Positions 3,344-44,100 of a DNA stretch of 64,000 nt are shown one piece after another. The notes under the pieces are model-generated. The model was not told the DNA's origin and did not search any database. It worked only from the letters and a program-made list of their open reading frames with translations. The translations under genes and the position numbers were made by a program. The DNA comes from Ascidiella aspersa (Eukaryota), in contig OZ004609.1 of assembly GCA_963924565.1 (NCBI GenBank), positions 7,998,001 through 8,062,000 on the forward strand, given 5' to 3'. Numbering within the stretch: the stretch's first letter is position 1; each line of letters begins with the position of its first letter.

Positions 3344-3545
3344 GGCGCTGGTCTAGAATCCTACCACAACGCGCATTATTTGGGTTAGGTTGCGGGTTAG
3401 CGTTTGGGTTAAGGTGGGTCAAGTATTATTATTAAATAAAGAATATAATAATACTTGACCCACCCACACCCAAACGCTAACCAGCACCCTAACTCAAATT
3501 TTGTGCGTTGATTTCATAACTGTGGTAGGATTCTAGACCAGCGCC
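3344..3545. mobile_element. Fold-back MITE, Merlin-like (TIR begins GG, 8-bp TSD)
   Basis: Perfect 25-bp TIR GGCGCTGGTCTAGAATCCTACCACA (3344-3368 / 3521-3545); the interior is also nearly palindromic; TSD AAAATTTG at 3336-3343 and 3546-3553. Superfamily is inferred from the termini and TSD length. Confidence 0.8.
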
Positions 3546-11165: not shown

Positions 11166-14100
11166 ATGTGCAATTTGTTTTTGTCGTTTGTCTTCGTCGC
11201 GATCCTCTTTGGAACGGCAACGCAATGCCAGGAAACGAACGAAAGAGGTAAAAAACTAATAAGAATATCAAAACCTATACTGAAGTATCGAGATGGGAAA
11301 TTTCACTTAAATCTCGGTGTTGAAAATGAATAAAGAGTTATTCGAAACGTTCAAAATGATACCTACTTCTGTAAGGGCTTTGATATTCTTATTACGTCTT
11401 ACTACAACCTCCAAGCATTATGTTCCAAGGTAAAAATCTGTTTTTGGCAAATATACGCAGTGCTAAAAGTAGTCCAAAACGGTCCGGAACCGCTTTCGGT
11501 TAAAAAAATATTCGTTTGCACCAGGCCATATTCATTCTTCACCCGACCACCCCATATCTTCATAAATGTATTCAATCTAAGATTTAAGTTTTGAATTGGT
11601 GCACCACATATGATACCCCCAGGCTCCCTTAGGTTACTTGTTTAGACGTTCACTTATGACGTAACTCTCTGACGTCATTTCTGAAACTTTTTTTGCATTC
11701 CGATAAGAAATTTATTCTACTTCCACCCCTGCGTTTGATATGTATTACATTTTCAAGGTATTTACAAAGTAACAGTGTAGTACATGTTTCACCGAGGAAA
11801 GTATACGCCCTTACTAAGCATCAAATATTACCATATAAACAAGATTATTTTTGATAATTTGATTAAACCGCAATTTTTTAAAAGAAAGCACGTATTTTCA
11901 AATTGTAAAAGGAAAATTAAAATGTTTTTTTAATGCGACCAATTCTCACTGAAATTGGAGAAATGTGTTTCACCTGCAGTGGAAAAAGCGGTGTTTTATG
12001 ACTCATTATTTGCGTCAATAGGATTTACGTAGTCATGCAAATATTCGTAATTAATCTCTGTTTTGTCCTACACATTTCCTCATACACCTGTGATTGCGTA
12101 AAAACACTGTATATACTGCCAAGTTGTACAATACATACCATTTTTTTACAAACACCACGTTGTTAGCACGTTTTTAGAAGGCATAAACTATTATATTCAG
12201 GGTCACATGTTTTTCATTCACTCGTAGATTATTATTTATTTAAAGTTTTTTTTTTTTTGATAATCCACTTAGTAACAAATAACATTCAAAACTATCAATT
12301 TTAGTCAATTGAATGCACGTCAGTAAGACATAATTTGAATGCATTAGCAAAGGCGTTATATTTGCCCATAAAAGGGCTTATTTACCGAACAAACCGAACA
12401 CGACTATTTTCATTTCGCAGCCAAACGGAGCAGCGGACCCAGTGCAAGAGTGACGTCATCAAACCGTACGTCATTCTCGTGTGATTTCGACGTGGGTTAT
12501 TGCGGCTGGGAAAACGACACCACCTCGGATTTCTCCTGGCTTCGCATTAAGGGGGAAACACCGTCCAAACACACTGGCCCACCGTGGGATCACACGACTC
12601 GAGGTAGTTAACAAGTTGTTGACCAGTGCTTTATTAGAGTAATTTGTGAAACGTTGAATGTGACATATCTTGATTGACAACGCTGTTATATATAATCGAT
12701 AAGCTTGTTCATGGGTAATTTTTTTTTTTTTTTGTGGGTTTCAATAAAAATATGAAAACCATAATATTCGAAAAACGACATGTCGGAAGTTACAGACGTT
12801 TCAGACGTTTCAGTCTGTAAATTCCGATATGTCGTTTTTATCGAATATTATGAATTTTATATTTTTATTGAAATTACTAAAGAAACCCGTGTATTGTGTT
12901 CCAAAGTTTGTGGGTTTGATCCTGATATGACAAAGCTGTTAGACGCAATGTAACGTATGCTCAAAGTTTCGCATTTAAAAATGGTCATATTAAGTTTAAT
13001 TGTCGAATTTGGTTGTTAAAATAGTGCTATTTACGCACTTTATATCACAACTGTTAATCGGGTGGGCCTAGGATTTTATTTGGCAACTAAAAAACGAAAC
13101 AGACTAACGATCAGACTAACTGATAACACTAATTTCCATTACATTTATCAACTCGGTGTTTATTTATGTAGGAAATTGTGTGCGCGCTTGATTACAGTTA
13201 GCTTTTTAAAGCTGAACTAAATTCCTGAGGCAAAAGCTATTTTTCCAAAGCCAAACCTTTCGGTTGCACCTGTCATGTATGACTAAGCCTGTGTTAAACT
13301 TATTCCCCATAAGTTTAACACAGGCTTACTGGTACATGACAGGTGCAACCGAAATGCATAGTTCTTTTCAACTGATGAATTGTTATTATTTTATGAAAAC
13401 TGTGGATAAATTTTACCACATAAGAACAACAACGAATCGCATAGACTTCAGCTACAACGAATTACAAAACCGGAGATAGAGCTAAAGATGCCATTTGTGT
13501 ACAAAACTGTATTCCCTATTATTTTAACTGACGTATTTTACATGTAAATCGCTGAAAAAACCCTTAGTTTTAAATGGTCTGATATAGTCTTCAAATATTC
13601 CAGGAAATCGTTGAAATACGCGAAGTCCAAAAATTCCTCGAGACAATTAACTCCGTGGTCGACGTTTAAATTCGCCTTAACTGGCCGGGAACAGACAAAC
13701 AAGAGTTTTACTTGGGTCGCCGGCGGCGCAATTAATCGGGATGCAATTAAAACCCGACGCCGCCATTATGCGTAATGCATTTACGTCACTGTCGCAATGG
13801 CGCGCGCGTTCGCACTGACGCATCTAGACAAATAGCGACGCATCATCATTGGCGTTTTACTGCGAATGTGCCGCGATTTTATTGCCGCAAAAGGCATCGC
13901 TTTATTTAAGGCGTTTCCGTCGAATTCGCCCCCCTACGGTTATGGAGCAATTTCGAAAGCCGCCTGGCAACACTTTGTAACCGACCTTAAATTGCTCGAG
14001 TTCAGCTTGTTAAATTGTAGCCGTTGGATGTGGCTGTATTCGACGAGGCGGTTTTCTTTCTGTCAATAAAACAGTGTATTTTGGTTCGGTCGTGACCGGC

Positions 14101-17100
14101 CGAAATGGCTAATGGCAGCCATTTTGCCATTTTCGAAGGGTTGGTCATGCGATTTTGTAACGGGGGGGGGGGGTCATTTGTGGTGCCAGTAAACTACTAG
14201 CGCTGCTTTCTAAAAATTTGGTTGTGAATTCAAATATATATAAAAATATATATCTAACATTGTAAACTTTTTCGGTTCCGTGTCAGTCATTTGTTTTAAT
14301 TATTTATTGTTATTATGCTCTTTTTATATTTGACTTAATCATTTTATGCTATTTTTTAGATTTTATTATTATATGCTTTTTATTGGATTTCGTTATTATA
14401 TATTATTTTTATTTTGAATTTTATCTTTAATTGCTATTTTGTGTTTTACCATTATATGTTATATTAAATACGACTAAACCTGAGTCGTAAAATGGGAGCT
14501 AAAGTAGATATTAAAATACAAACCGACTATAGCATCGGTTTTTGCACGTGGAGAGGTTTTGACGACAACGAAAACTTTTTTGTCGTTTTCATTCACAAAA
14601 TAACACGACCGGGTGTTTCCCTCTAGGTTGCCATTAGCGTAAACAAAGCTGGAGGCGTGAAAACCTCTTTGAACTCACACATTTAACCATATACGGCATT
14701 ATCTTTCAGATAACGGTTTCCTAAACTTTTTTAAATCGCTTTTTTAAAAACTCCGGAAAAAAGGAAAAAAAAACGTTTTGGATATCAAGAACCTTTTTCA
14801 CGAAACTTCTTTTTTGAAATTAAAAAACTTAAAACCTGATTTTAGTTATTAGATAAACACAATTTGCAATTTTCATGAACACCATTGGCGTTCTCAATAA
14901 ACACGGGTCTTGTACAGTGTACATCACAGCAAAATAGCATTACACAAGAAAGAAAAGACGGCACATTGCCACCAATATAACATATGACAACGTTTGTTTC
15001 GCAAACTACCCAAATATATTCTTCAACCAACGATCTCTAATCCGCAGGCGCAATACGTTATTGTCTTTAGAGCATATTGGTTGGATGTTGTAGTTAGACG
15101 TAATAAGAATTTCGAAGCTCATACAGAAGTAGCTATTATTTTAACCGTTTCAAATAAGTTTTCATTCATTATTAACATTGAAAATGAAGATGTTGAAAAT
15201 GAATAACGAGTTTTTCGAAACGTTTAAAATGTTACCTACTTCTGTATGATTGATATTGGTATTTTCTTTATTTTGTGAAACATCTCGCTTGCTTTGCAGA
15301 GAAGAACGGTGGCTACTACATCTACATCGAGACGTCTCACCCGCGAAAAAGAGGCGATAAGGCGAGAATAATGAGCCCTGCCATCACTCGGCCCGGAAAT
15401 TACTGCCTCAGGTATCTTTAAGTGGATTGCGTCATCGGTAAAACCGGACCTGAAATTGTTGATCAGTTCCACGTTGATTATATATGCAAAACACCGAAGA
15501 GTTCATTAATGTATTTTTAGATATTTCCCAAAGGAGACGATCGCCCATAATTTTGTTGTTATTTTTTTGTTCAAAAATAGCATTTTTTAGGATTCCTTAA
15601 GGTTCTGACGTTGCTGCGGAAAGTTCTCATTAATCAATTATTTTGTAGCAACATCTGAATTGTTTAGTTGGCAAAAATTATACACAAATTCAGATTTCGA
15701 AAGCAAACGCACCTTTGTCATCGCCTATATTCATGCTTTTCTAATGGCCCGTTATAGTTCTATGTATGTATATCTGAATTGTGAACACAAACATATCTTA
15801 CCTTGTAGCAAACCATCGCGAATTCACCACTCTAGTCAGACACACAATAGCCCGACTTCATAGGCCTAATGCTGTATTTGAAGTTATGCTTACAAAAATA
15901 TGCAAAGTAAATTGTATTTTAAACATGTAAATAAAATGTGATTGATAGTAGTTAGGGCTTTCAGTTTGAGAATCTAGCACTTCAAGTCAAATAGGCAATT
16001 TTAGACCAAGGAGTCAAAAGGCAATTTTAAACATTTCTCGCAACTTGATTTTGATGTACAGAGACTTGAGCTCACTTCAGCGACAAACTACTGAACTCTT
16101 TGCAAACTGGAGTTTGTTATATAGTTATCCACAAACTAATTTTTTTTGGTGATGCCACCGAGTACCGCGTTACATTGCAAAAAAAACCTTTCGCAATTTC
16201 AAACCGGCAGCTATGTTATAAACATTTTTCTTTTATATATTAGCTTTTGGCATCACATGCACGGATCCGACATCCGGGACCTCAACGTGTACACGCGCGA
16301 AATGACGTCACGGCTTCAAGACATGATCGTCCATTTGTCCGGTCCCTGGTCAGTGGAAACGGCCAATCAGAAGCTGATATTCGGACAAGACGGCGACTGG
16401 TGGAATCGGCAACAAACTCAATTCGCAGTCGTCAAACCAACGCGGGTAAGAAGAATAGGTTATTCGGACCCGATATAGCACATTACAAAATCGATAGTAT
16501 TCGCAGCATAATTCCTACAAAAACACTTTTTTTTACAATCGCCTTGTTGCAATAGACAAGGCAATATATAAACTGTTGCTACCAGGCATAGTAATATAAA
16601 TCGAAAAGCTTCTCCTCTGGTATTTGTAATTGCAATTCCAGACAAGCCAATAGAAAATGTCCAAATGTTAACTTTTTTTTCCTGGTATCATTTGCATTTC
16701 ATTTATATTTTCGCAGTATTCAGGGTTGCGATACAAAACGGTTAACTTCCAAAATAACAAAAAGTCACAACGCCTGAGAACTCTTCGAGACAATCTTTTA
16801 AGAAACACGGATTTAAATTTAAAAAATAAAAAAACAAACCATTATGTTACAGGGACCATAATCTCTTGGTTAAGCAGATTACTTTTCACGGCGCAAAACA
16901 TTTATGACATATTTCCTTTAAGGGACACGAATAACATTCCAAGAAATCAAAAAAGTACAATTTTCAAGGAATGCATTGTTTCGGGGCACGACTTAAAATA
17001 ACAAGCAAAAGTTACATTTCAAGAGCGCAAAACATTCAAGGCTACAAACTTTAAGGTATAAATCAAATTTAAACATGAAACAATCACAGGCGCAATAATT

Positions 17101-20100
17101 ACATACAGAGGTGCATTGGCCTACTACATTTATGAGACAAATACACTCGGAAGCGCAACTTTAACGTTTTAGGGGAACAAAAAACATGTAAGGTAAAAAA
17201 GCAACCTGCGTTTTTTTCTTGAAACAAAGTAGGAAAAAGTTTAATTTAACAAACGAAGAGACTTTTAAAGCAGTCTACTTGGTTTTTCGTTGCAAATTCA
17301 CCTTAATAACTTGAAATCACCCGAACTTGCTTGGGAAGTGTCCTATGTTGACAAGTGGGTACCGGTATTAAAAAAAAAAAAACTAAATGATTGTCACTGA
17401 ACCCGTTTTGTGAGATTTGGTATTGAGAAAATAAAACGTGAACAGGGCGAAAATCTATTAAGTGTTTCGCGCGATGAACAGCATGCGTGAAAAGGAAGTT
17501 ACCTCATCGACCACACATTTGCGGGTTATTCTAAACCGGCGCCTTTCGCTGCTTCGGATTCTGCGGCTCGGCTAATTACAAAGCACCCAGTGATAATTCT
17601 GCTAAACCCTAAGGCTACCTGTACACTGTACAGACCTTGATTACTTGCAGATAACGCTTAATGGGCCGTGTTCAGGCCCAAATGTGCTAATTTTCCGCTA
17701 GTTTTTGATTCAACTTGCCAAGGTCATGGAAATGCCTATAGGTTATTTTTCTGCTTTCGAATATATTACGACATGGTTCGTCGTACGAAAACGGCACATT
17801 TGAAGGCATTATGTCATCATATTAGGAGTAGAAGACGACGTACCGTATACCAAAGTACGAAGCATATGCTGGAATAGTGACGTTTTCATTCATTTGAAAA
17901 GTGACGCTTTCATTCAATTGAATATAGGATACACAGATAAGTTAATAGTTTGAGAGAAAATTGTTAAGGCAAACATGTTTGAGTCATTGCATAAAACCTG
18001 CGTTTTATTTTCGAAAAAGCGGATGGTCGCGACCAAATTGAATGCTGTCGTTAAGTGTGTTTTAATAGGTAAATTTGTTTTTGTGAGTAAGGAATGCACT
18101 TTGAAACAATTTTTTCCGCCCTTGGAATAAAAATGTATGTTGGCGGCACGTAGCGAAGACAGCATTACGCTTACCACCGATTCAATTATTCCAATTGAAA
18201 CCTAATTTGAAATTTTGGAATTTTTTAATTTGAGTTGATTTTGGCAAACGATTTTAAGGTGTTATTCTAATTAATTAGTGTGTCAATGCATTTGGTTGAA
18301 GACAAGCGAGTTTAAAGGGCGACGTCATTCTAAAATGAATCCACTAAAGGTTAAAATATGTAAATCTTACTATAAACTGACTTTCTAATGTGGTTAGTAT
18401 TCTGTACAACAGCATTTTAGCCTAAAAACGACGATTTAGCTGTAACTTTTGTTGCTTTCTATTTCACTGAACATTTTTTTTAAATATTTGTCGATTTATT
18501 TTTTGAAACTCGAAGGTTTGCATTCTAAGTTGCGCAAAACGTCACTTTGCGGTTTCCGGGCGTGTCCGTGACTTTGCTGTTGCAACAAACGCAGAGTGCT
18601 GCCGGCAAAAACAAGCTTGACACACATATCAGCCTCCTGGCGTATAAACTTATACCGCTATAAATATGCTGTTGCTACCAGGCATAGTATATTTAAAACA
18701 GGTTCCTCTGGCAATATATATTATTATATTGCCAGAGGAACCTGTTTTAATTATACCGCTAGAATGTGAGCATTGCTACCGTTTTGTGGACTATATCGCT
18801 TGAAATGTGGCATTCTCTTTACGAATGATCTCTCGAAAGACCATTTCCTATGCAACATTTTCCTATGCACCTTCAGTGCAAACTTTAACATATTATAAAT
18901 CAACGCTACAACACTAAACGATTGATTACAACTTGGCGCGTTCGAACCCACTTTTAGGCTGCTGCGTTGGCATTTTTTCCTTAAGACTTATACTTTTATT
19001 CGGACAATCAAACATATATTTATGGCGTGCAATACTCATTTGAAGTGTGGGATATAGATCACTGCTTTATCCACTTATACCAGATGTATTACCATGTTCC
19101 TTCCCACGATTGTTTTAATATCTCTCGTTAGACACATGAAGATATAGATGCAATGTTATACCTACCTTATTTAAACAAAATGGCCGAAAAAATCATCCGT
19201 ACTCCCTTAAGCAGGAGAGAAACCAGTTTTTGTCATGTGGAATCACGCATCGCAATATTTATAAAGATCTTGTTACTATTTTGTACATTACAGAAAGGTT
19301 TGTCTAAGGTTTTATTTTAAAACGTTATCATATGCGGTATGTAAGGTTCTTCTATAAACCTAATGATTTCTTTTTTGCAAACACTGATAATGTTAAAACA
19401 ACAGTAATTGATTGCTCGATTTTCAGATTATTTTCGAGGCGATTTACGGAGAAAATTACCGCGGAGACATCGCTGTCGACGACATCGCGATATCGGCAGC
19501 TCCTTGCGTCAGAGGTCAGTAGAAAATAAAAGGTCTTTGGAAAGAAAAGCCAAAAATAGTCTTTTTCACTTTTGCGAAGAATTTGTTTTAGGGCCCAGGT
19601 TAAATTGCATAGACGAAACAAAAATCACAAATAACAAGCGCAATTCAATCGTGCATTATCTTTTACATAGTGTTTATATAACTGTGATCCCGGTGGATGA
19701 TGTATGATTCATAATAAACTTGAGGAAATCATTTAAAGTGTTTGCCCAGATTGTAGATTTTTCCCGCCCAAAAAATTGACAATAAATCCAGAAACCTGTA
19801 AAAGTTTTGCAAGCCATCGATCGAGAAGCGCTGTGTAATGTTTTCATTCCTCTTCACACTGGTCTTGGTACTTCTTCAATTTATACCACAACCTAAACGC
19901 CGTTCAAGTGCAAAAAGTCGAAACGTTTTTAGGACGAAAATCGTGTACAGACAGTTTCTAGCATTTTTGGTCAAGCAAGGCCCTAATATTGGCTTTGAGA
20001 TTGCCTTTTTTGTGGTCTTAATAACCGACAAGATCCGAAGTATAACAGAACTTGGCCACTAAATTTATTGAATAATAAAATTAAAAAAAAAATAGAACTG

Positions 20101-23100: not shown

Positions 23101-26100
23101 TGATTTAATAATAATATTATTTTCATTGCTTTTTTGGTTTCACAAATTATGGCGATGTCTTAGCACATATGGCAATATTTTTCAGTGTCTATATAGCCGC
23201 TTAAAAGTAGAGATTGGAGCAACAGATATTAGTTAGGTTTAGGTTTTTTGAGGTGCACGTTTTTGGAGGTACACGTATTGATGCTTAGTAAAATAGTTTC
23301 ACTTCTTTAAGAGTTAGTAAGGGTACTTCCCAACATGCGCTCGTCGAAAAATATGTCGTTTAAGACACATGGTGACTACCCCACTAGTATCATGCGTTTT
23401 ACAATCTTTCAAAATTGATTGGCGTCGGTATAAATATATCTGTAAGTTGTAACTGACTGAAAATATGCGTCTCAAACTAGCTTAACTCTGAAAGAGGATC
23501 TACATTTCTTCGATTGTTTCGAATAAGAAATTGTTTAATTTTTATTTGTAGAGGCTAAACGACGGCGCCACAGTCAATATTTATCACTTATTTTAGCAAA
23601 TATCACAAGATCGTGACCTTTGTCTTGCGTACAGGTACCACATGCACGGGGTTAGCGTTGGGCCACTCCGCGTATTCATCGTGGAACAGGGAAACGTCCA
23701 CAATCTCGTCGATCCAGCTTGGATGCTTAGAGGGGAGCAGGGCGGCAGATGGAAAGAGGCCGACGTCCAGATTCCCACCGAAGTGCTCGACAGGCCATTT
23801 CAGGTAAACACCACACAATTCGTGTTGGATATGGTGAAAATGAATAAACCTATATGCGAAAAGTTCAAAATGCTACCTATACTTCTGTGTATGAGACCGT
23901 TATGCTTCACAATGGTGTCGAAATACTGCATTTTTAAGACGGTAAGTCGTATAGTTAAAATGTACCTAACTGTTCAACGAAATGGTAAATCCTTCGTCTT
24001 TTTTGCTACAATATTTATTGACGTTTTGTTTAATTTTAAGGCAGTATTGTAATATTTATAATAAACATCCACACGTTGATCTTAAGCTCAACTATATAGA
24101 TAGTAAGTATTATATTGGATCAACTGAATCTGTCACATGGAATGAAAAAACATATATTATATATATACTGTATTGCTTCTTTATCTAACTGACTTTGTTC
24201 ATTCTCTTCCATTGGGTTCAGATTTGTCTTTGTTTTGTCTTAGTATAAGTGTGTGCGCACTTGCTTGCTAACCACCTAACATGATCTATTTTTCACAGAT
24301 AACACTATATACGTCAATATCGTAAAATTAAATCAAAACGATTAAAAACTAAACCTATATGCTCCGCCTATAGATTATAATCGAATCCGAGAGGAAAGAA
24401 TACCGCGGTGACGTGGCAATCGATGACGTCAGGCTTCTAGGCTGCTACGCAATCGGGTCGGGTGACCAGGATCCCCTAGTCGAGACCCGGGTCACCCCCG
24501 AGGAGGCGACGGTACATTCGGGCCCCGAGGTGATCTCCAAAGTCACCCCCAATATCGAACTGAGCGAAAAGGGAGCAAAGCTGCCAGGTCAGTTGTGTTA
24601 GATTGTTGTTAGAGGTTACCTTAACCACCTTGATGAGGGTTTAAATGTTGCAGTGCTTGAAGTAAGCCAAAAACTTCCTAGAAGAATCTTTGTATATTGC
24701 CGTATTTGTCTAATTCTAAATAGAGAAATCAGGTGGCACTGTATAAAGACAAATTGTATTTGATTCTCTATATTATACTTTTTGAAGTATATTATACTTT
24801 GACCTGATGAAGCACGGTTGTGCGAAAGCTTGTCGGGAATCAAATACAATTTGTCTTTTTACAGTGCCACCTGATTTCTCTCTTCCTAGAAGAAAATATC
24901 GATTTTTTTAAATCCTATAAAAATGTGGAAAAATTTACAGAATTACTCTCCGTTGAATTCGGATGATAAACAGTGACAGAATTTATTTGGATGAGCTAAA
25001 AAATGAAAGCGAAAATTTTAGTTTGACAATCGCAATATACACATTGTGTCAAAGCACAATTCAACTTAGGCTTTTATACTACAGGAAATTTCTATTTGGA
25101 TTATTTTTATAAAACAAACCAGGTGTACACGTGGTCATACGTTTGTAATCGCATTAGTAAATCATAAACTTGTATGTGATGTTCTAGCAATGGAAATTCC
25201 CAAATCATATCAATTGTTTATTTCTTGTTCCAAATTTAAGTAAATTGACATTAAACGATCTAAATCGTTCACGAAACCTTCCAGTTAGTGTTATTTAATG
25301 GAAATGTACTGACGAACTTAAGTGTCGATCATGACTACCTTTGTTGAACGTGGTCGTTGTCGGACGCCAAATATAGTCCTAAGACCGATTAGAGGCTTTG
25401 GAAACATTCACAAGACAAAGGCTAGTGTTGACTTCGCAAACATGTTCCTCTAGATTCGAGTAAATATAAAAACACTCCGGTTAGGCGAAAAGGCATTAAT
25501 ACGTGCGGAAAGTTTTATGCTGATTACAGATTATCTTGTTTGAGGTCCGCTTTGTCATCACACTTCCATTGTTGTTTTGCGCGATTTATGCTTCTTGGCA
25601 AACACAGGGATATTCCGATTCTTATCTGTATGTCTTGAATAGGTTTCTATGTTTATAATCGGATTAAACTGGAAAATTCAATGTGGCAAATAAAACATCA
25701 CGATTTCTTGCGTTGCTGATCGAATCAGCTCGTTTAGCTTTTGGGAATGATTGTGTATTTGTCGGGTTAATTTTATCGCTTGCATAATCCTTGAAACAAC
25801 AGTTGTTTCGTAACGCGACATGTTACAACGACTACTCGAATAAAAAATAAATGTGAATGACCTTTTTCGATAAACAACTGAAAATATATTTTTCCGAAAA
25901 CATCTCTGCAAAAAACTCTAAAAACAGTTATATATATACGCATTGAATCTTTCCCACGCGGATTTACAATTCGTCCAACTTAACTTCAAAGCTCTTTTAC
26001 CTGGTGTTTAAGTCCACTTACAAAGTTGCGGTTTGTGTTAAGAGCTTCGAGGTGTGCTACCGGTTTAGATTGGTGTTTTAACAATGCCACTCTCGGGCTT

Positions 26101-29100: not shown

Positions 29101-32100
29101 GACCTTTCGGCGTTTTGCGTCACCGACAACATGACCTTTCGTGCGTCGACGTGACATTCGGTAATTGCAAAGTCAACGCATTTTTTATGCGCTTGCGATA
29201 GTTTGAGCGCGAAACAGCCCCGTTACAGGCGTCAACTTTGCGGGTATTCCTAAGCCGGAAGCTATATCAGACTAAGCGTGATAATCCAACACAAATTGAA
29301 CTAGATTTATCGACGACCTAGGCTTTGGCGCGATAGGTGCGAGTTTCACTATAGCCTTATTCAAAATAAGTGGATGTCTCTTGCGGGCCCACGACGTATT
29401 TTGCCCTAAATTTTCATGTGCAAGTTTTTTGACCCCTGACTGGATAATTAATCGTCCAATTTCTCCACGATGATATTGACTGTAACTCCCTTTTAAACTA
29501 TCGAAAGCAAACTTTAGTTTGATTAATTTTATTTAAACGAACATTAAAGAGAACTTTAACACAGGACCGTTCTGATATAATGAATAAGGTTCCGGCCGGA
29601 GTATACTAAAATTCTTTGAAGCACCTTCATTTCTTTAGCTATTTGTTTTCTGGTAAAACGCGCCAGTCTGAACGGCGCATCTTTCTCTTATAAGTGGTCG
29701 CAGGTCAATTGAAGATATTTCATTTAAGGAACCCAATACGGGGAGGTTTTGGCAAATACGGGGAGGTTTTGGCAGAAGGGCAATTTAGATTGACAATACT
29801 GGAATAATTACGAGGCTTATTTACGCAGGCGATAGTATCTTAACGCCACAAAGATTTCTTGACAGACTGGCTTGGGCTGTGTCGCAAACCGTAAACAGGT
29901 TATTCAGGTTCTTACTGTTAATAATATTATTGCAAGTTTGACTGCAGTGTCTATGCTGCCGCTTATCGAATTCCAATCAACGACTACAACCAACAAATGT
30001 CTTATGTTCTGCGCACCCACGCAGTAGTCAGCGGTATGTCATGTAGGCGCGCCTCGCCGCCGTGCTTCTATTTTTCAGAACGAAAATCAAAAAGTGAAAT
30101 CGCCAGCCCAAATAAACAGGATCAAAGCCAATGTTTAACCACGCAAAATTGTTTTTTTAGGAATAACACATATTGCAGTGCGCAGGAGCAGCACTTACCT
30201 TCTTCTTAATTCCATACCTATATTACCTAAAATTAAAAAAAATACGTTTAAATTGAATTCGTTTGAGCGGTAAACCGACCAAAACTCTAAATCAACTGAA
30301 TTCCTAATGTTCTGAGGTTGGCCCACGCATCACTTTATAATATACAGAGTGGGTGCGGCAAAACTTGTTAACGGAATAATGCGATCGGTTGTACCACCAT
30401 GGCTCGGTATTATACATCTTGGTTCATTCGAACTTTTTTCTCAAAGGTTTAAAAATAAAATTAGAACTTTTCAGTTTCCCAAATTAGATTACATAAGTTA
30501 AATTACCGAATTAGCGAACACTAGAAATTAAAGGAAATTCAAAACCCATTTAAATGGAAAACGAAAATTTTTCTGTAAAATTTAAATGGCAAAGATTATC
30601 AGACTGCAACCTTTTTCTTTAAAAACCGAAAAACAAACAAACTAAAAGGACACTAAGAATATCAAAGCCCATACAGAAATAGGTATCATTTTGAACGTTT
30701 CGAATAACTCTTTATTCATTTTCATGATGTTGAAAATGAATAAAGAGTTATTCCAAACGTTCAAAATGATACCTACTTCTGTATGGGCTTTGATATTCTT
30801 ACTACGTCTTACTACAACCTCCAACCATTATGCTCTAAAAGGACACTAAATCAAATAAAAAAATCAACCAGAATCATGTTTAGATATGTGATGCTCAATT
30901 TGTGAAGTATTAGCAGGGTGGAAGTAAAATAATTTTCTGACCAGACCGTGACCCGTTCGCTCGCATGAAATTTTCAGAAATGTCACAAATTGTCCCTATA
31001 ACTGGACTTCTAAACAAAGTAACCTTCGAAAACCTATACGGTTATCTTCTTTAATTCAGGCTTACCTTCACCACTGCGCATTAGGCAAATATAATTGTCT
31101 ATATAGTGAGCGTCTAGAGCAGCGGTTCTCAACCAGTGGGCATGGCTCACTAGTGGGCCATGGGAACATTTTGAGTGGACCATAGACCAAATTTATAAAC
31201 CTAGTTTTAATGAAGAATTAGGTTTTATTTGTGTCACTACACTTAATTTTACAGAAATAATGGCTTGGGAAGGAATTTAGAAGGAATGTAAATTTATCGT
31301 TCACCAGCTAGTATCTCACCAATGCACGGTTAAAGAAATAATCTGTTTTGAAACATGTTGTGCTGTGTTTTGTTCTAAACCTATTTCATAGTTGTTTTTT
31401 TCATTTTTCAACATTTATTGGACCACAGAATTTTTGTGCAACGAAAATGGGCCACGAAAGAAAAAAGGTTGAGAACCACTGGTCTAGAGTTTCTTGGTAT
31501 TCTGCTAAACTTTGGGTATTGTGCCCTTACAGTCATATGTTACGCATTTTCCAGACGAAATAAGCTGCAACTTCGACGAAGGATTTTGTAAGTGGAAGCC
31601 GAACAAGCACTCTGACTTTGACTGGACGCTGAACCGCGGGAAAACCGCTTCACTGAAAACCGGCCCGGAGCATGACCACACATCGGGAGGTTAGTGCACT
31701 CTAGTTTGATAATGCTAAATTTTTTAAGCCCAACATGGACTTTATAATAATTAAAACATCTCTTCTGGTAATTGTAATGGTTAACTTTTTTCCTTTTTGT
31801 GTTTTCCATATATTGTGTATTACGAGCGTTCGGTGCCATTTACCTTGACGAAATCAATTTAAATAGGTTGCCGAAACGTTGGTTAACAATTACAATCACC
31901 AGAAGTACTATTTGTTAGTGTTATTACTATTTCTAGCAAGTTTATATATATTTTCAAAGGTGTAGTGCAAAAGTTTAAGGCTATATATGCTACAGTTTAT
32001 ATGCAGTGTTTACGAGCTAACAAAAGTGTCAGCTTCACCGCTAAATTCGTTCGGTTTAATTTGTGCCACGTAGTAATTTACATACGATCCAATCGTCGGA

Positions 32101-35100: not shown

Positions 35101-38100
35101 GATTTGATTAAAATTATTCTCGGTAAAATTTTGGTTCTATGGATTGTTTTAACGAAATCGGTTTGTAAGTTTCTAATCCAGTGTGGAAAATTTCGGCTGC
35201 ATTATAGTTTTGCCTCCCTTAGAAATATAAGTGATTAGGTTGACGCAAGGGATAAACTTAAAAAAAAATAGAATTATAAAAACACCCCCGGAACAAATCA
35301 AATCTAATCATTCAGGTTCTTCCACAAATGGTCGGCCGATGGACAAAAAAGTACCAACGAGTACGATTGGAGATTCGCTCAAGTCGACATTTCTGAGTCC
35401 TTCAACTTTCAGATCGTCTTCCGCGCGATTCTGGGCACCAACTTTTACTCGGACATAGCAGTCGATGACGTCATCGTTAGTCCAACGTCATGCCGTGAGT
35501 GACGTAATGAAAATGTTAGCCGTTAATATGGAAAGTATATAATATTGCTGCGCAAATTTAAGAGTTATTACGTTATTAATGTAGATGGTTAGAATATCGT
35601 GATTTCTTTTTATAATTAAATATGCTAGTTTGGACGACCCCATCGTTTAACTAGTGCTTATAGTTAACCTCCATATAGTATATCGTCTTCTATTCGTCAG
35701 CATGGGGTATACAACACGTCATACAATCAACATATATTTTTCATAAGATGTGCATTAATTGTAAGCGTCGGAATAACTAATAACAAGCGTTTAGCCTACG
35801 TGATAACTGGATTTAAATTTATACTGTGATTCAAATCAAAAATATTGAATTTTCATAATGGCTCGCATAGCTAGATGTATATCAAAAATTTAATAACAGT
35901 TACGCCGAACTTACAAAAAAGGTAGCACTGAACATGTGATATCGAAAATCACCTTGTTTATACCTTACAAGATAAATGTCGACCTTAATTCTTGAGCAGT
36001 AACAGCAGACTACTCTACAAAGCTAGGAATTCAGGTCAGACACTATTACAAAATATCATTTTAATAGTGAAAAGATCTTTTAATGTAGATTGTTTAATAG
36101 TATCTGACCTATTGATAGGTTTGCTATATTATTCTACTATTCCCACAAGGGATAAAATCACTTAAAAATGAGAGATGCATATTTGGGAGCAAGAACAGCT
36201 AACAGTAAAGTGGGGAGAAAAATGTCGTTGGCCTTATCCAAAATCGTTATTCGCCATTATCGAAATTAGGTTGGCTTAAAAAGCAAAAACAAAAGTCTTG
36301 CGTTTTCTATTCCAGGTTCTAGCCCTAAACAAGTTCAGTCTGTGAGCAGGCCGCCGCCCACAAGCCGCCAAATCGCACCGACCAGCTTCATGCAAGGTTT
36401 GTCCCACAAAAACAAGAACAAAATTATATTGAACACAACAAGTGAATATCATTAGTGTTATAAAACTATTTATTTAAAAAAATTGCAATCGACTTAGTTT
36501 AGAATTGAAGTAGCAATTGACTGTTGTATTTTTAACCAGTTGTCAATATTTCGTGATCCTGGAATAATACCTGTATTGTAGATTTAATTACTTCGTACGT
36601 TTGGATTCGGCCGTTCAAACAATTTGTTAACAGAAAAATAACTGAATATAATTTGTCTTTTTAAAGTCAAGCAGATTCGCTAAACTTGCCTTGCTATAAC
36701 ATTTTAGGAGCATTTAGAATTGAATTTCATATCTGATTAAAATCGGTGAATCTGCCTGCATTATAGATTTAATTACTTTGTAAGTTTGGTTTCAACAGTA
36801 TATGTCATTTGTAAACAAAAAAAACGACTGAATTAAAATGGCCATTTAAAGGCAAAGAGGTATACTAGCTAAACTTTTAGGAGGTAGCGTAAAGTTCATA
36901 TTTGACTAAAATGTGGGAATGTCCCCGTATTATAAATTTAGTTCCTTCGTATGTTTGGTCAACAGTTTAAACAATTTGCAAACCGAACAACGATTGAATT
37001 TAAATGCTAAACTTGCCTTGCTACACAATTTTAGGAGACAGCCTTCGATGTGATTTCGAGACATCTCATTTGTGCGGCTGGACGCAACCGGTCTACGACC
37101 AATTCGACTGGACCATTTCGAACAAGACACCATCACCAAACACGGGGCCGCTAAAAGATCATAAAGGTGGTGTACTTAAACTGCAGCCTCGTAAAACTAA
37201 AAGACCATAACGGAGGCATACTTGATCCCATCTCATAAAACTAGTTCTTTCAGCACGAAAAAGAGAAGCGGCATGTCTTCGTGGGAACATATAAGAAACA
37301 CTTCAAGTTTTTACCTGTATCTCACCTCTGTTGTTTATACCTCATTCAAACTTTTCGCAAAGCCCACATCGACATATTACCCTAACAACTCTTTTAGTCA
37401 ATCTTGCTAAACATTTTTAGATAAAGAAGGAAAGTTTGCCTTTATCGAAGCCTCTTCAAAAAGTCCCCGGGACAAAGCAAGGCTACAGAGTTCCTTCTTC
37501 ACTCTTCCAAACCCCGCCTGCTTTACCATGTGGTACCACATGTACGGCAACTGTAAGTATTAAGTGTGCATCTAAATGCGTTTAAGTCGACGTCAAGCAT
37601 TAGTGCGAAATAATGCGTCATGGAGATAAAATTAGATGTAAATTCAGCTTTAGTACTCAGGCTCTCCAGGAGCTTATGTCCACACAAGACATATATTGTG
37701 TGTTTGTTTGATTTTGACCACAAGTAGTATACACAATGTGAATTAGTAATTGGTATATCAAGTAGTGCTACCGAACAAACGTGTTCCGCAATCCACTGCA
37801 TTGTACTTCTCCGAATCTTTCTTGGGAATCATTGTATTGTATACCCGTGTTTTAGACCCCTTTAATGTGAAGTTGCCTGTACTAACAGAATGAGCAAGCA
37901 TTTGGCGTCTCGACTCGCTCCTCTCTGAGCCTTTGTAACTCAGTTGATAGAGGGGTGGTCCCGGTATGACCGAGGTCGTGAGATCGAACCTCACTGCAGG
38001 CTAGTTGTTTTTCTAGCCTGCTCTGCTTGCATCATTGATCGACAGATTTAGTGATTCGGCAAAGGCCTTCGTTATACTAATGATACGTAAGTGCGTAATC

Positions 38101-41100
38101 GTTTGCCTAAAGGCAGCTTCATAAGGGCTAGATCACAGTTGTTAACACACATATGTGTGTGTGCATTTTTCTTTCATTTTTTTGTGCATCTTTCTTTTCA
38201 CTTTTAGTGTTTGTTTTTAATTTGAAAAACTTAACCAAGCTTAAACACGTTTTTTTAGCCACTGGCTCGTTGTCCATCTACAGCGTCACCCAAGGGAATT
38301 CTACGAGCGAAGTTATGGATCGCCGTCAACTGACCAATGAGTTGCTATGGCAACGATCCGGTAACCATGGCGACAAGTGGAACAAACTTTTCCTCAATTT
38401 AAAGGTTCGGTAATTTTCTCCGCCCATCAACAAATCAACATTTAATTATTCTTAAACCTTAATATTGCATATATATTCATTTTAAATTAAACTTAATCGA
38501 CATTTTTCTTGACACCATAGTCTTTACCCAGCTTGCTTCAAACTATTAATTTTGTTTACTATTTACTTCGCTTCGTCCGTCGATAAATAAGCAATTAATC
38601 AATTTTCAACATTATTTGTCATTGCATATATATCCATTTTTAAAATCTTAATCAACATTTTTTTTCTTTACATCCTAATCGAGTATGATCCTAGCTATTT
38701 ACTTTCTTTAGATGCTATTAAAATGATAAATCCAAGGTAGAACTTCTTAAAACGACACAATTTTTTGATTAAATTTTAATTTTGTTTTTCATATTTTTGC
38801 ATGATTTTTAATTTAATGGCACTGATCAGTTGTTAGTCCATTCAAGAAATTCTGTGCGACTAAATCTTTTAAGAAGTGTACATTAACGCCAAATTCGAAG
38901 AACCTATTTGTTTACCGCAAATCTCACTTTAAACTGTTTATTTTTCACAGGAGTCGTCGGGTATGCGGCTTGCCATAGAGGGTGAACGGGGTCTTGGGTG
39001 GAAGGGTGACATCGCAATCGACGACATTGAAGTCTTACCGAATGAATGCCGTAAGTCGTTTGAGCTCTTTTCCATAGTATAGGTGGTGACTTTTTAGCAG
39101 TATTGTACAACCGCCCGATACAGTTAATTTAAAGTATTCAAATAGATAATATATTTTTGTTCTGAGGATAGTATCACATGGCAATCGTTGAAAAGCATAA
39201 TACCTTGCAACACTATTTTAAACGTTAAATAAAAGTTAATACCCCGTTTCAAATATGAATCTAAATAAAACTTTTAGTTTTTTGCTAATCGTTTGCATAA
39301 ATGACTTATGTCCAAGTCAAATCAACTCTTCAAAATAATTCAAAACAAGTCAACATTGCAAGCATCTTAATTATTAGCTTACATCAAGTAGCCTTCCTAT
39401 AATTTAACATTTGTTTTCAGTAATACACTACTTTAAAACAGAAATTAATTTTTATATTTTTGTTAATGCAAGCATCTTCCTACAATTTTTTTATCTATCT
39501 CGGCACTCTGTTGCCCATAAAACCCAAAAATGCTTGATCCTTCAAAGATGCGTAACGTAATATAAAACCCCAGAGGGAAGATTGGCTAAGCTCTATCTGG
39601 TTTCATATGCGCATTTATTAAAAAAAAAGGTTAAAAAGACCACCGGTGAAGTATAATACAGGGTGGCATAGGCTGCAAACCAGGTGGTAAATATGGAGCA
39701 GAGATAATCATTTATGTTTGCGCTCAGTGAGAGCTTTCACATTTCTCGCCTTATCAAGTTCCCGGGCAATTATTAACCCGCATCCGAAGGCAATCGGTTT
39801 TTGAGTGTCCCGCCTTCCAAAAGCCTCTTATTGGTTCGTTGTAGAGGTTTACAGAAATAAATGCGGGACCCGAAGCGGTTGTGGCCGCCGCGAAACAATA
39901 ACAACGCCACCTCGAAAACGGAAAATCCCTTCCGCCTTTAAAACAATGCGGCCTTGTGTGCTGCCTCGAAATATGCCTCATCTAGATTTAAATGAATGGT
40001 TCCTGTCGCCGTCTGATGTTTGAATGACACGAAAGTAGGTTAAAAAGTGGATGCCAAAGCCGTGTAATCTTGACTGAAATCGGCTTACATTTAAACCAGT
40101 TTGTCAATACGACCACAGGATTTTTCATTCTTTTGTTTTCTGCTCAGACAAGCATTTAATATCGGTATAATATTGTTGTACGATGGTTGGAGATTCATAA
40201 GATTTATTATGCAGTAAATATTACCTATCTATAGAGTATGGGGACCTTTTTAGCTTCAAAATGAATCGTACGCCTTTAAATATTGAAAATAAGGTTAAAG
40301 CAAATTGACATTATAATACTGCAAAAGTACTAACACGTTTTTGCCACTTTGTTGCTTCCTAAAACTTCGTTTCTTTCATTGCAGCCATTTTCAATTGCAC
40401 GTTCGACACAAATTTGTGCGGTTGGAGGCAAAACAAAAAACAGGACGACTTCGATTGGACGAGGACCAACAACGTCACGCCCTCCGCCAACACAGGGCCG
40501 AGATTCGATCACACGAGACGAGGTGTGTGACTTCATAATCCTCAATTATGGATGCTTACATCGTTATAGGAGACTACTTCTGTAATATCACATTCTTCCC
40601 TAAAAAACCTATGTACTTAGTTATGGATCCATGAATTGAAAAATGTGTCTAAGGCCATAGGACAACAATGTGGTGTATTGTTCATGAAAACATATAAGCC
40701 ATTGACAACACGTTTAAGCTTCTATTACCCCTCTTGCGCCGCAATAAACTAGTAAAACTTTATTCGAACTAAGGAACTGTAAATGCTACTTGGTTGAATT
40801 ACATATTCCCTTTAACCAAAATCTGATTATGTACTTTTCTTATATTTTTGCACAGGTTTACTTGATGATGGCGTCATATGCGTTTTGAACCCAAATAAAA
40901 ATCGGCTACTGTTTTCTTTCAGGATTGCTGGGACACGGACACTACCTGTTTGTCGAATCATCTAAACCTCGAGAAAAGGGAGACAGGGCCAAGCTAACTA
41001 GTCCGCTCGTGAAACCGGGAAATAACCCAAGTAAGTGATTAAAAAAAGTCTCAGTGTGCAATTTCTTGAAACTGGCACATTTTAAAATGAGGGGCCTAAT

Positions 41101-44100
41101 TAGCGTTTATCGTTAGAATAAAAAAGTTTTCGGTAAAACTGTCTTTTATTGTTTAAACTGGTTTTGCTAACCTCTTTCTGTTAACCGGTTTTTGTGCGCC
41201 TGTACCTTTATGCTATACCCGGTCAATTTGGCGTTAAACCTGGCAATTCACAATCATACTTTTCTCACGACTAATATAACCTGCCTGATTTTTATCCAGA
41301 CAAGTGCCTGAGCTTCTGGTACCACAGCCATGGAAGCAACATCGGCCAGTTGAACGTTTACAAGCGCGAAAGGGGAAACACCAACCCCTTCCTGGACACG
41401 GTTGAGTGGTTCCACGAGCGTGACGAAGGTGACCGCTGGCTCTTTGCCAAGGTCGACATCGACGATGTAAACCCATACCAGGTTAGGACATCTTCTTAGC
41501 TTGGAATTGATTTTCCGATAATATCGGATAGAAGCCGATAACAGGTGTCAAGTTACACCCTACTTAGATACCTATTTATTGTCCGATAATATCGTATCGA
41601 ATACGATAACAGGTGTCAAGTTATACCCTACATAGATTTGTAATTATTGTCCGTTAATATCGTATCAAAGTCGATACCTGATGTCAATTTATCAGCGTTG
41701 TAAATAGGTCATGTTAAAATGACTTAAGCCCCAGTCAAGTCATTTGTAGGATAACTTAAGTCCAAGTTAAGCCTTTTCGAATAAATAACAAGTCAAGTAC
41801 GAGTCCAAGTCATCAGTTGCGCAAGTCAAATTACGAAGAATAACTGAACTAAAAAATTGAGTTGTTTTTTGTGCAAAAATTTGGACAAATAGCTCAAATT
41901 TATAAAAAGAAAATACTTAAAGAAATGCTTTATTTAAACCAAAGTCATTTGTTCAAAAGACTTAAGTCAAGTCAAGTCATTTGAAACCAGTGACTTAAGT
42001 GCACTTAAGTCAAGTCATTGACTTAAGTCATTACAACACTGCAATGTATAGCCTACTTAGGTTGGAATAATCCAGCCAGAGACAATGAGCCATTTTTTTG
42101 CCACAACTTGCACATGACAGAAATCAATGCTTGCCTGTTTCTTCCTCACAATCAAACATGTCTATGTTCACCTAGATTGCTTTTAAATGTTGCACGCTAA
42201 AAACGTTGCGTTGCGAATTTTGATTGTACTACAGGACTCTTTAGTAAATGCCATCATGCAAGTTTCTAAAATGTGTTGACTTATTTCAACAAAAGTTATA
42301 GAAGCCTACTTAGATTGGTATGCATTCAGAACCTTTCACACACAAAGCATCCGAAAAGTCTACACCTAAACCACAACACGAACCCTTGTATATATATTTT
42401 CATAAACATTATAATACTTTGGTTATATTGCTGCTGAACGTATGGAAAATGTTTATTTTTCTTAGATTTCTATGAAAGACATCAGAAAATCTTATTAAAT
42501 AGATCAACCATTTTATATGTTTAAGCAATGTGACTTTTTTAGGCACATTTGTTTGCACTTACCGTTTGCTGTTTGTTGAATCTCAGATCGATTATTGCTC
42601 GCCATTCTCACAACGACGGTTGCCCCCTTTTTTTCTTTTTTTTGCCCCTTTTTTGCAGATTATTTTTAGGGGGGTAAAATCTACAAATTTGAGTTTAACT
42701 ACAAGTTTGAGTTTTTTACTCGATATCTTGATTCTTGAAACTTGGGTTTGCTGTTGTACGACAGAGCGTGATATAGTCAGGAGCTTTTAAAAGGCCTTTG
42801 GAGAAGAAGCGCCATTTTAGCACAAAATTTTAGATGTTAAAGCAATGTGACTTGTTTAACCCCATTTGTTTGAACTTTTTGGTACACTATACACGGATCT
42901 GTAATGTAGCTTGATACTGAATTGGTAATCCAAAAAGGTCGAGTAGATCGACATCATCTTGATTACGACGTTTCACCTTAACTAAAGATGATACAAGCTG
43001 GTTTGGAAACGTCTTAATCAATATGATATTGATCTACTCGACGTTTATGGCTTAGCTATTCATTATCAAGTTATTATTTGCTGTTTGTTAATTCTCAGAA
43101 TCGATTATATTGCTCGCCAACTCACAACAACGTCGTTTTTGCAGATCATTAATAGAACGTAATAGCGAAAAGACGGCGAAAACAACACACAACAAACGAT
43201 AAAATATTATTTGCAACACTTTTATCTGCTAATTCTCAGGATCGATTATATTGTTTGCTTCAACTGCACTTTTTCGCAGATCATTTTCGAAGGGGTACGC
43301 GGCGAAGGCTTCAGCGGCGATATTGCAATCGATGACGTCACAATCGCTGACGGGATGTGCGACAAGTGTTGCGGCGTTGACGTGTTCCAGTGCGGGAACG
43401 GATATTGCGTCCCGGCGTCGCAAAGATGCAACAACGTACAAGACTGCGGGGACGGAAGTGACGAGTCGGAATGTGGAGGTTTGCATTTCATTATTTATGT
43501 TGCAATACTATTTTATTTTTTGATAATAAATTGCAAAGGCAAAAAGGTAGATTAGATCGACAGCATCTTGATCAAGACGTTTCGATACGAACTTGTATCC
43601 TCTTCAGTTAATGTGACTGAGAATCAAATCAAAGAATCCCTTATAAATGGTGGAACACAATTGTTATTATCTGAGTTTGTATAGTTGAATCATAATTTAG
43701 AACCTTGTCGACGTTCAATTCAGGGCTGCAGTCTTGAATAGACAGAGACTTGAGTAACCGCAATCTAAACACGTCTGAAGCCCCTCCGGTTTGCAAAAAT
43801 CAATCTTATGGTCCGAGTGCTGCAGAAGATGTCTGCAAACCTCTGATTTTTCATCCACTCTATGTTCTTTGACCCTCGTTGAAAGATTTCGTCGGGTTTG
43901 ACCAAGGAAGCACCACATGAACACGTTAATTTATACAAGACACTAGATCGCGACAAATGTTCTTGGCGATCCTTCTTTCAAAACGATTTCGTCATTTTGG
44001 TTGTGTCATGGATCAATCGAAGCACAACCTTGCCACTAGTAGAGCGGAGTACAAACCTGCGTATTTCACGACTTATATGGTGTGAACCTTGGCCTATGTA

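Follow-up and report, generated by a model that had tools for sequence, protein, structure and literature searches.

Short palindromic insertions in Ascidiella aspersa are best read as abbreviated landings of Penelope-like elements

How do several short palindromes that differ in sequence come to share one architecture? The question is raised by a window of 64,000 nucleotides from Ascidiella aspersa (contig OZ004609.1, positions 7,998,001 to 8,062,000), in which the recurring unit is a hairpin with a tail of about 30-36 nt on one side only and a variable target-site duplication (TSD) of 9-20 bp (Table 1). The original prediction, that unrelated families A, B and C have this layout in common, is confirmed: the five termini recognised here, A to E, give no BLAST match to one another, and the elements at 12710 and 42910, suspected to resemble the first three, are indeed the hairpins of families D and E. 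We consider it quite probable that the hairpins are pseudo-LTR (pLTR) and tail ends of autonomous Penelope-like elements (PLEs) from five families, each hairpin likely made anew at insertion from two head-to-head target-primed cDNAs. The preferred reading is that of ordinary PLE insertions, very short ones, with the palindrome formed at each landing.

Table 1. Hairpins and related PLE sequences in the window (tail lengths in nt)
Feature	Positions	Strand	Inverted arms	Tail	Remarks
Family A hairpin	30657..30834	+	30654-30724/30731-30801	~33 (~30802-30834)	96-97% identity to parent L171
Left TSD of A hairpin	30642..30656 (right copy 30835-30849)	+			15 bp, exact direct repeats at 30642/30835, CTAAAAGGACACTAA
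Family A copy	11257..11431	+			31-nt inverted arm, ~25-nt filler, complete tail arm; TSD partial, AGGTAAAAA
Family A hairpin, older	15065..15263	-			84-86% to parent; tail at left; flank repeat 8 bp exact only
Family A fragment, decayed	23830..23888	+			81% over 59 nt
Family B hairpin	24687..24881	-	24719-24766/24837-24884	32-35 (24687-24718)	Neptune/Nematis-type parent; exact 13-bp TSD 24674/24882; tail arm up to 24768, seam, tail-less arm 24792-24884
Family C hairpin	18661..18750	-	18687-18718/18725-18756	26-32	exact 11-bp TSD 18650/18751
Family D hairpin	12742..12906	+	12739-12804/12813-12873	33 (~12874-12906)	exact 11-bp TSD 12731/12907
Family E hairpin	42878..43073	-	42907-42974/43006-43073	29 (42878-42906)	within intron of MAM/LDLa gene; tail arm to 42974, tail-less arm 42979-43073 spanning hammerhead
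Family E PLE, 5'-truncated, frameshifted	43516..44288	-			RT thumb, GIY-YIG remnant, pLTR; 3' end tail-less

The window copies vary in preservation. In the A hairpin at 30657, the tail-less arm is followed by a 2-nt seam ending in an extra G (30726), and the tail-bearing arm begins at the A of ATGTTG (30727). The copies near 11260 and 15070 belong to family A as proposed, the long TSDs expected of them being only partial (8-9 bp exact), while the copy at 23830 retains the family assignment and not the layout, as it is a decayed fragment without hairpin or tail. Both arms of the C hairpin end at a palindromic AT run, which on the parent lies ~45-50 nt downstream of the hammerhead core, and the truncation points of the D arms fall inside the hammerhead. 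The C arm and TSD overlap by 6 nt. The flanks of the E hairpin were checked for a TSD and none was clear. This hairpin had been traced to the neighbouring Penelope copy; the family is indeed the same, yet the hairpin was not copied from this neighbour, because the two are only 79-83% identical and the hairpin carries a tail that the neighbour lacks.

PLEs sharing the terminus, autonomous or coding and with reverse transcriptase (RT) and GIY-YIG, were found for all five families. Judged from the sequences, each of the A to E termini is the pLTR and tail end of its own endonuclease-bearing PLE in this genome, and the terminus-sharing loci (A L171/L172, B L212, C L210/L211, D L288/L293, E L154) show an RT with a C-terminal GIY-YIG holding a Cys pair between GIY and YIG, as in EN+ PLEs. 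Parent A (L171, L172) has an intact 843-codon stop-to-stop ORF between direct pLTRs 2666 bp apart, and the A arm corresponds to the first ~36-38 codons of this ORF. Pfam recovered RVT_1 in parent A (GIY-YIG below the cut-off), RVT_1 and GIY-YIG in parent B and RVT_1 in parent E; it gave no match for parent C and missed the PLE fragments of the window. The RT and GIY-YIG motifs of parent C were identified by eye, its RT being 29-30% identical to those of A, B and E by BLASTP, and those of parent D (L284/L288/L293) were recognised by motif. In L212, a linker C-GKSR-C-EL-C precedes GIY-YIG, congruent with the CX2-5CxxC linker between RT and EN that marks Neptune/Nematis (PMC8557442). This linker is missing in A, C, D and E, which fit Penelope/Poseidon, the clades being assigned by motifs. 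The pLTRs have the partial tandem and/or inverted arrangement of EN+ PLEs, direct in L171/L172 and as inverted arms in long and short copies, and long copies terminate either with or without the tail. The terminus-sharing parents, together with the long variable TSDs, support the Penelope origin, hammerhead link and non-MITE nature that had been put forward.

In each of the five parents, the pLTR contains a minimal hammerhead. A descriptor with a palindromic stem III matched those of A, B, C and E; that of D, with a G-U closing pair and no descriptor match, was read by eye. In the window the descriptor gave four matches (11320, 15178, 24804 and 43607), whereas 30 Markov-shuffled windows averaged 0.0. 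The full motif ascribed to B is present, with the core at 24804 on the + strand of the tail-less arm, and the core at 43607 sits in the pLTR of the truncated family E PLE. The A core, in contrast to the decay attributed to it, is complete at 11320-11351, with a covariant U3-A8 (a published variant) and an extra base 9a; the copy at 30657 has lost its core through a point change and truncation. Family C was likewise wrongly considered coreless, as the hammerhead is present in its longer members, and that of D is also found in longer members. Searching the window with Rfam returned no hammerhead family at E<=1, a search that is uninformative for minimal motifs; the hairpins match miRNA models only below threshold. 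When the hammerhead regions were folded as monomers, stem II formed in A and C, and the z-scores (0.47, 0.43, -2.62, -0.62, -2.23, -0.87) were mostly unremarkable. At the predicted cut we counted 9 of 77 5' ends in A, where ~4 were expected (p=0.023, window picked post hoc), 1 of 27 in B and 0 of 31 in C. Loose RNA-seq ends at the predicted cut were discounted, as they coincide with a polymorphic base.

We then turned to position-ordered samples from which duplicated segments had been removed, comprising 96 loci and 65 hairpins for A, 38 and 25 for B, and 30 and 13 for C, a subset of the exact tail matches (890, 149 and 221, respectively). Rows with shared flanks (L058, L059, L277, L323, L265, L276, L350) were left out, as was L377, which has the same TSD as L267 (flanks not aligned). 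A TSD was found in 49 of 65 A, 23 of 25 B and 11 of 13 C hairpins, in sum 83 of 103, versus 0 of 103 in a displaced control. The TSDs, whose lengths are upper bounds since one mismatch and microhomology were tolerated, measure 9-19, 12-18 and 13-20 bp in A, B and C (medians 13, 12 and 14), and the tails have medians of 33, 36 and 30 nt. Long and variable TSDs, as noted in the window copies, recur in the samples; TSDs (window copy E excepted) and tails agree with the variable-length TSD and optional one-sided tail of 30-40 bp of EN+ PLEs. Short, high-copy palindromes may recall DDE-transposase MITEs or foldback DNA elements, and true MITEs do occur in the window (3337-3552, 31113-31488). This origin is refuted and retains a vanishingly small probability: the ends are asymmetric, TSD, length and centre are variable rather than fixed, and the sequences are identical with PLE ends, the opposite of the fixed TSDs, symmetric TIRs and missing PLE partners that would have spoken for it. 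The MITE at 3337-3552, taken as control, kept its symmetric ends and a constant loop, varying by single bases at most, in 16 of 16 loci, 15 of which are distinct; in the loci read by eye the TSD was 8 bp long.

The original prediction also held that the hairpins are non-autonomous families moving as such, in other words that short PLE-dependent masters, retrozyme- or SINE-like and in the form of a hairpin or a monomer, are transcribed, moved in trans and propagated as independent families. Short copies do far exceed long ones, with 9 of 96 A loci extending >30 nt upstream of the ATG and 890 exact tail matches versus 123 for an upstream-spanning pattern. Moreover, the internal promoter of D. 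virilis Penelope (PMC2377424) could render a start-to-tail monomer transcribable, and non-autonomous PLE derivatives have been published (PMC8557442; bioRxiv 10.64898/2026.07.22.740005). However, the junctions are distinct in 103 of 103 hairpins (65/65 in A, 25/25 in B, 13/13 in C), repeated junctions being confined to duplicated genomic segments, the samples contain no fixed unit re-copied to new sites with a shared seam and its own subfamily, and insert lengths grade continuously from hairpins to 0.3-2.7 kb, leaving the claim unsupported. In addition, site-34 variants occur alike in long (19 C/22 T) and start-site arms (42 C/62 T), the upstream TATA is missing from short A copies, and the samples lack tandem arrays of head-to-tail units each with a hammerhead. 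RNA reads placed on the A unit continue into unlike sequence in 94% of cases, as with passengers in host transcripts. Independent mini-elements are, in our view, improbable. Signs of tandem units were limited to L056, a short tandem, and to a few back-joints in DNA contigs. In 31 of 96 A loci the inverted arm is undetectable. In one RNA-seq run (~6% of the run), the ORF had a depth of 0-5x and high depth fell on the arm only; among the rows listed there were neither circles nor a site where many molecules begin. A sequencing-run search revealed no RNA holder among the matches listed, and no empty-site alleles for B and C were seen among the joints listed for other runs, in which contigs break at repeats.

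How, then, does the palindrome arise? On the parent, the starts of the two arms lie ~30-36 nt apart. Among the 103 hairpins, the tail-less arm reaches >5 nt further 5' in 53, the tail arm in 24 and neither in 26 (p=0.0013), the excess of the tail-less arm sometimes amounting to hundreds of nt (L339, L255). Both arm types of family A preferentially end at the first base of the ORF, followed by a G that is absent from the parent: 66 of 161 A arm ends fall within -3..+2 of the ATG, and the next base is G at 32 of 43 ends at 0, 6 of 7 at -2 and 13 of 77 internal ends, while the base past this G varies among copies. TATATATA is located 32 nt upstream in this family. The extra G is likely a copied cap, start site and cap being deduced from the DNA, and untemplated 5' G has been tied to cap copying in L1 (PMC9341517). 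Family B shows a ragged 5' limit, with 20 of 63 ends falling at -2..+8, and in C no 5' limit lies near a start site.

Alternatively, a single cDNA could fold back and copy itself, or an antisense template could do so, as has been suggested for the PLEs of Adineta; copying would end ~33 nt short, and later deletions at the palindrome centre would vary the seams. Congruent with such folding back, the arms share far more variants than under permutation (36 vs 14.3 in A, 30 vs 10.7 in B, 25 vs 4.6 in C), the seams of L006, L007, L011, L012 and L021 are perfect palindromes, and antisense-template self-priming is the published interpretation (PMC3846280). Folding back nevertheless predicts a longer tail arm, whereas the reverse prevails, and a tail-less arm that reaches further 5' cannot be yielded by fold-back of the first cDNA. 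Furthermore, the start site is reached more often by the tail-less arm (38 vs 25, of 66), and the extra G, found at the inner end of 15 of 23 tail-less and 17 of 20 tail arms in family A, points to capped sense RNA as the template of both. We regard self-copying as very unlikely; asymmetry and extra G speak for two target-primed cDNAs, both copied from capped sense RNA, rather than for fold-back or self-priming on an antisense template. Arms are concordant in 22 of 22 scored pairs at B site 87 and in 28 of 37 at A site 34, including all 17 pairs <2.5% diverged, which is compatible with one RNA or one source locus and equally with fold-back. The notion of two different RNA templates, assessed through arm discordance, was unsupported, the young pairs being concordant. 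An A-to-C change at +42, present in the tail arm of 10 pairs and the tail-less arm of 1, is unexplained by the two-cDNA model. Later central deletions in palindromes could produce part of the arm asymmetry.

For the preferred two-cDNA origin, we envisage that the GIY-YIG endonuclease would nick both strands of an AT-rich target ~12-14 bp apart, and that capped sense RNA would be reverse-transcribed from each 3'-OH, with one start at the tail end and the other ~33 nt further 5', the tail representing the offset between the two priming sites. The RNA of A, and likely also of B, D and E, would start in the pLTR just before the hammerhead; a cDNA primed at the first site along the mRNA would therefore measure only 80-130 nt. 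The two cDNA ends may then be trimmed and united through end joining, with microhomology or filler. The hammerhead would be an inherited passenger, and the inserted hairpin is probably dead on arrival. More tentatively, and with slightly less than even confidence, the seams may constitute a fossil record of how PLEs integrate, namely through target-primed reverse transcription performed twice on capped sense RNA, with both cDNAs reaching the cap and leaving the extra G on both arms at two start sites. On this reading, the palindromic stem III of the minimal hammerhead might pair two RNAs and in this way provide the two templates.

The hairpins are ordinary mobile-DNA debris, yet they record a probable mode of PLE insertion. 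For annotation, PLE ends in the form of palindromes of 90-200 bp, hundreds to a few thousand per family, would be mistaken for MITEs or miRNA-like hairpins. The PLE cycle is poorly defined, and palindromes joined head to head have been interpreted in print as products of antisense self-priming; the asymmetry of the arms and the likely cap G offer a testable alternative, consistent with the in vitro priming of the anole element. If double priming on sense RNA is true, it would decide between a sense template and antisense self-priming for PLE inserts of this head-to-head kind, and MITE-like mini-insertions would be integrated strong-stop products of ordinary PLE mRNA.

In L1 twin priming, the second target nick primes a second cDNA, leading to an inversion. 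There the cDNAs come from different parts of one RNA, whereas here they cover the same stretch with starts ~33 nt apart. The layout itself, an inverted pLTR plus tail, is already known; a search of openly accessible articles for earlier accounts of PLE mini-hairpins posing as MITEs, or of double priming, yielded the general layout and paired hammerheads on opposite strands, and no article describing these stubs or a PLE cap G. EN+ PLE inserts (Penelope/Poseidon, Neptune, Nematis; Pen2a_Av of Adineta vaga; PMC3846280, PMC8557442) share the inverted 5'-truncated copy beside the pLTR, the one-sided 30-40-nt tail, the variable TSD of ~9-20 bp and a pLTR overlapping the first ORF codons. Unlike those, most insertions here consist of the two ends only (90-200 bp), MITE-like in look, with hundreds of exact tail matches per family, and their arm asymmetry and extra G speak against the antisense self-priming proposed for Adineta (PMC3846280). 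Non-LTR retrozymes (bioRxiv 10.64898/2026.07.22.740005) are likewise short, hammerhead-bearing, pLTR-related and non-coding; they are head-to-tail tandem repeats, however, as opposed to the head-to-head pairs or solos with TSDs seen here. With the minimal hammerheads of metazoan PLE pLTRs (PMC4209133), ours share the extra base between 9 and 10.1, G10.1-C11.1, the palindromic stem III (ACGU or AGCU), the U3-A8 variant and the 'dual min-HHRs 100-700 bp apart on opposite strands'. A 2-bp helix I, known from D. virilis, is also shared. A difference is that family A RNA is predicted to start only 3 nt before the core, which would leave a 2-bp stem I. Similar in priming is PAc (Poseidon, Anolis carolinensis; PMC11167929), whose ORF begins at hammerhead stem II, the AUG falling on A9-U9a-G10.1, a position it shares with families A, D and E. 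Its RT start differs, lying 111-118 nt into the ORF in vitro, and the likeness, as far as the available part of that source extends, covers priming and not an integrated two-cDNA product or a cap-derived G. Yet in vitro, PAc nicks and extends both strands of AT-rich targets and starts RT at two sites, the gap between them being the tail, a two-strand, two-site priming that matches the arm offset proposed here.

The window (G000 C3:7998001-8062000), from a 308-Mb animal genome, holds five families of hairpin-shaped inserts (A to E), in which two inverted arms meet at a seam and one arm carries a tail. The layout originally predicted is present as claimed and is backed by exact TSDs for families A to D, with no clear TSD found at the E hairpin of the window, and BLAST of the five termini against one another recovered no similarity. 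E had been read as derived from the neighbouring Penelope-like element (PLE); since it is only 79-83% identical to that copy and bears a tail that the latter lacks, it is instead a sister insertion.

Positions of hairpins and other features in the window
Feature	Position (strand)	TSD	Observation
Hairpin A	30657-30834	15 bp	
Hairpin B	24687-24881	13 bp	
Hairpin C	18661-18750	11 bp	
Hairpin D	12742-12906	11 bp	
Hairpin E	42878-43073		within second duplicated intron
Duplicated introns	42510-42618; 42827-43132		first is rough empty-site paralogue for E
Truncated PLE	43516-44288		begins directly after LDLa exon
MAM/LDLa-repeat gene exons	~38100-43480 (+)		
Decayed short fragments	10100-10156; 16573-16600; 32480-32503		two resemble family C, one D tail
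Control palindrome	3337-3552	8 bp	216 bp
Second copy of control palindrome	48273-48456		decayed
Likely hAT-type non-autonomous transposon	31113-31488		22-nt TIRs; 8-bp flank repeat GTCTAGAG
97-nt hairpin	13258-13354		46-nt arms; neither long TSD nor visible tail
Dispersed repeat, probably tRNA-derived SINE	51452-51526 (-)		tRNA-like head (Rfam tRNA, 42.4 bits); related copies 37851-38162, 50592-50917
Hammerhead-like match	51724 (-)		no palindromic stem III; chance level (null mean 0.87 per window)
GNPAT-like glycerol-phosphate acyltransferase	1160-3094 (-)		uninterrupted long ORF, 644 aa, apparently intron-poor
SLC22-like MFS transporter	62315-63979 (-)		uninterrupted long ORF, 554 aa, apparently intron-poor

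Exact-pattern searches of the genome matched at least 890 A tails, 149 B and 221 C (reversed-pattern controls, 0), and copies extending upstream led to coding parents that share termini with the hairpins of all five families, as the original prediction had proposed to check. In both A parents, L171 and L172, direct pLTRs 2666 bp apart flank an open frame of 843 codons, with RVT_1 and a below-cut-off GIY-YIG in Pfam; the A arm plus tail equals the first 38 codons of this frame. The B parent L212 combines RVT_1 and GIY-YIG with a CX4CxxC linker, in sequence a mark of Neptune/Nematis, while L210 and L211 (C) retain RT-EN with frameshifts, L284, L288 and L293 (D) have a GIY-YIG ORF at their end, with a hammerhead-like pLTR behind it, and E is represented by L152-L170 and the truncated copy in the window. 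With proteins only 25-47% identical to one another, the parents of A, B, C and E are separate families.

In positional order, we tabulated the first 100 of 890 matches for A (30 loci from the pattern search, 68 fetched in addition and 2 already available), the first 42 of 149 for B and the first 30 of 221 for C. Eight duplicated loci were dropped, leaving 96 A loci (65 hairpins), 38 B (25) and 30 C (13). Congruent with the expected long and variable TSDs, these were scored in 49 of 65 A hairpins (9-19 bp), 23 of 25 B (12-18 bp) and 11 of 13 C (13-20 bp), at 71-82% AT, and in 0 of 103 when the right flank was displaced by 200 nt. Median tails were 33, 36 and 30 nt, respectively. All 103 seams are distinct, ranging from 10-nt overlaps to fillers that are often re-copied pieces of the element, and insert lengths form a continuous grade from below 100 bp to kilobases. 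Of the non-autonomous hairpin elements first envisaged, the PLE origin thus stands by virtue of the coding parents, but the hairpin itself is not the moving unit, as every seam differs; judged on the tabulated A to C loci, neither a fixed non-autonomous unit nor a retrozyme fits. A MITE identity does not fit A to C either: the loop of the control palindrome is constant apart from single-base variants, and its ends are symmetric, in all 16 loci fetched (15 of them distinct), and the copies read by eye have 8-bp TSDs, whereas seams and TSDs of A to C vary. The control is a true, young MITE, presumably hAT-like from its TSD length, with 3826 first-look candidates across the genome. Elsewhere, a B hairpin (L076, G000:C4:31772658-31772849) lies within an older A arm, its TSD made of A sequence, and six inverted A pairs with identical 265-bp spacing near contig ends (G000 C2:448353, C2:827624, C2:39706254, C3:314988, C3:39258472 and C5:33178) are probably a single insertion spread through subtelomeric duplication.

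Each arm, on its own strand, reads like a cDNA from the target end towards the 5' end of the RNA. On family A, tail arms start at about +107 to +115 and tail-less arms at about +70 to +83. Among all 103 hairpins of A to C, 53 have a tail-less arm that extends further 5', 24 have a tail arm that does, and in 26 the two are equal (p=0.0013). Fold-back of the first cDNA is less favoured, as it predicts the tail arm to be the longer. In family A, 66 of 161 arm ends fall within -3 to +2 of the first ATG, and the base just past the end is G in 32 of the 43 that stop at 0 and in 6 of the 7 at -2, positions where the parent has T. Internal ends show a G there in 13 of 77 cases, and the base past the G varies. 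TATATATA lies 32 nt upstream. From this DNA we infer that the A RNA may have two start sites and a cap copied as G; cap copying is proposed for L1 in PMC9341517. Family B has a looser 5' limit (20 of 63 ends at -2 to +8) at a TCATTT motif that appears initiator-like, and in family C 10 of 43 ends gather at a palindrome of A and T. For an anole PLE in vitro, PMC11167929 describes both strands nicked and extended, with reverse transcription starting at two sites whose gap forms the tail. Taken together, the arm asymmetry, the extra G and the anole data favour a model in which capped sense RNA templates two target-primed cDNAs that are then joined head to head into the hairpin, rather than the self-priming on antisense RNA that PMC3846280 proposes. 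If reverse transcriptase often began at the initiation site met first on an ordinary mRNA, some 110 nt from the cap, this would account for the high share of short copies.

Several points weigh against the two-cDNA reading. Arms of a hairpin share variants (22 of 22 B pairs, 17 of 17 young A pairs), which fits a single RNA or source locus as well as fold-back, and deletions after insertion may add to the asymmetry. The RNA-seq run displayed no transcription start sites among the rows listed, and 94% of its reads on the A unit run on into unlike sequence, as expected of passengers. An A-to-C change at +42 of family A (L171:3424) is likewise counted here: 10 hairpins have it on the tail arm and 1 on the tail-less arm (p=0.012). 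It is confined to copies with a divergence of 2% or more, occurs on both backgrounds of the subfamily-diagnostic site 34 and makes up 22% of contig depth in sequencing run X1; repeats within the tail may have served as its template. Promoter-keeping, ORF-less copies could also serve in trans as non-autonomous templates; for D. virilis Penelope, PMC2377424 describes a promoter of the internal type.

Searched with a descriptor for minimal hammerheads whose stem III is palindromic, the window gave 4 matches against a mean of 0.0 in 30 shuffled windows, and we regard the hammerheads of A to E as candidate ribozymes. The A core, previously considered decayed, reads U3 U4 G5 A6 A7 A8 A9, an extra U and a stem II of 6 bp with G10.1-C11.1 as its closing pair, and then GAAA, palindromic ACGU, a GUU or GUC cut triplet and a 2-bp stem I. 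It follows the PLE pattern of U3-A8 covariation, extra base and 2-bp helix I in PMC4209133; the same paper notes dual motifs that lie 100-700 bp from each other on opposite strands. For family C, thought to have no visible core, a hammerhead lies immediately upstream of the short unit in L210 and L211. At the predicted A cut (+34 to +37), arm 5' ends are in slight excess (9 of 77 versus about 4 expected; p=0.023, post hoc), whereas neither B nor C shows such an excess.

Families A, D and E have an AUG at A9-U9a-G10.1, likewise its position in the anole PLE (PMC11167929). The main value of the hairpins lies in the cap-G and arm-asymmetry evidence on PLE insertion; their architecture is already known for PLEs, for which an inverted pLTR with a 30-40-bp tail is published (PMC8557442, PMC3846280, PMC8969392), and A to E are further examples of this same layout, cut down to its ends.
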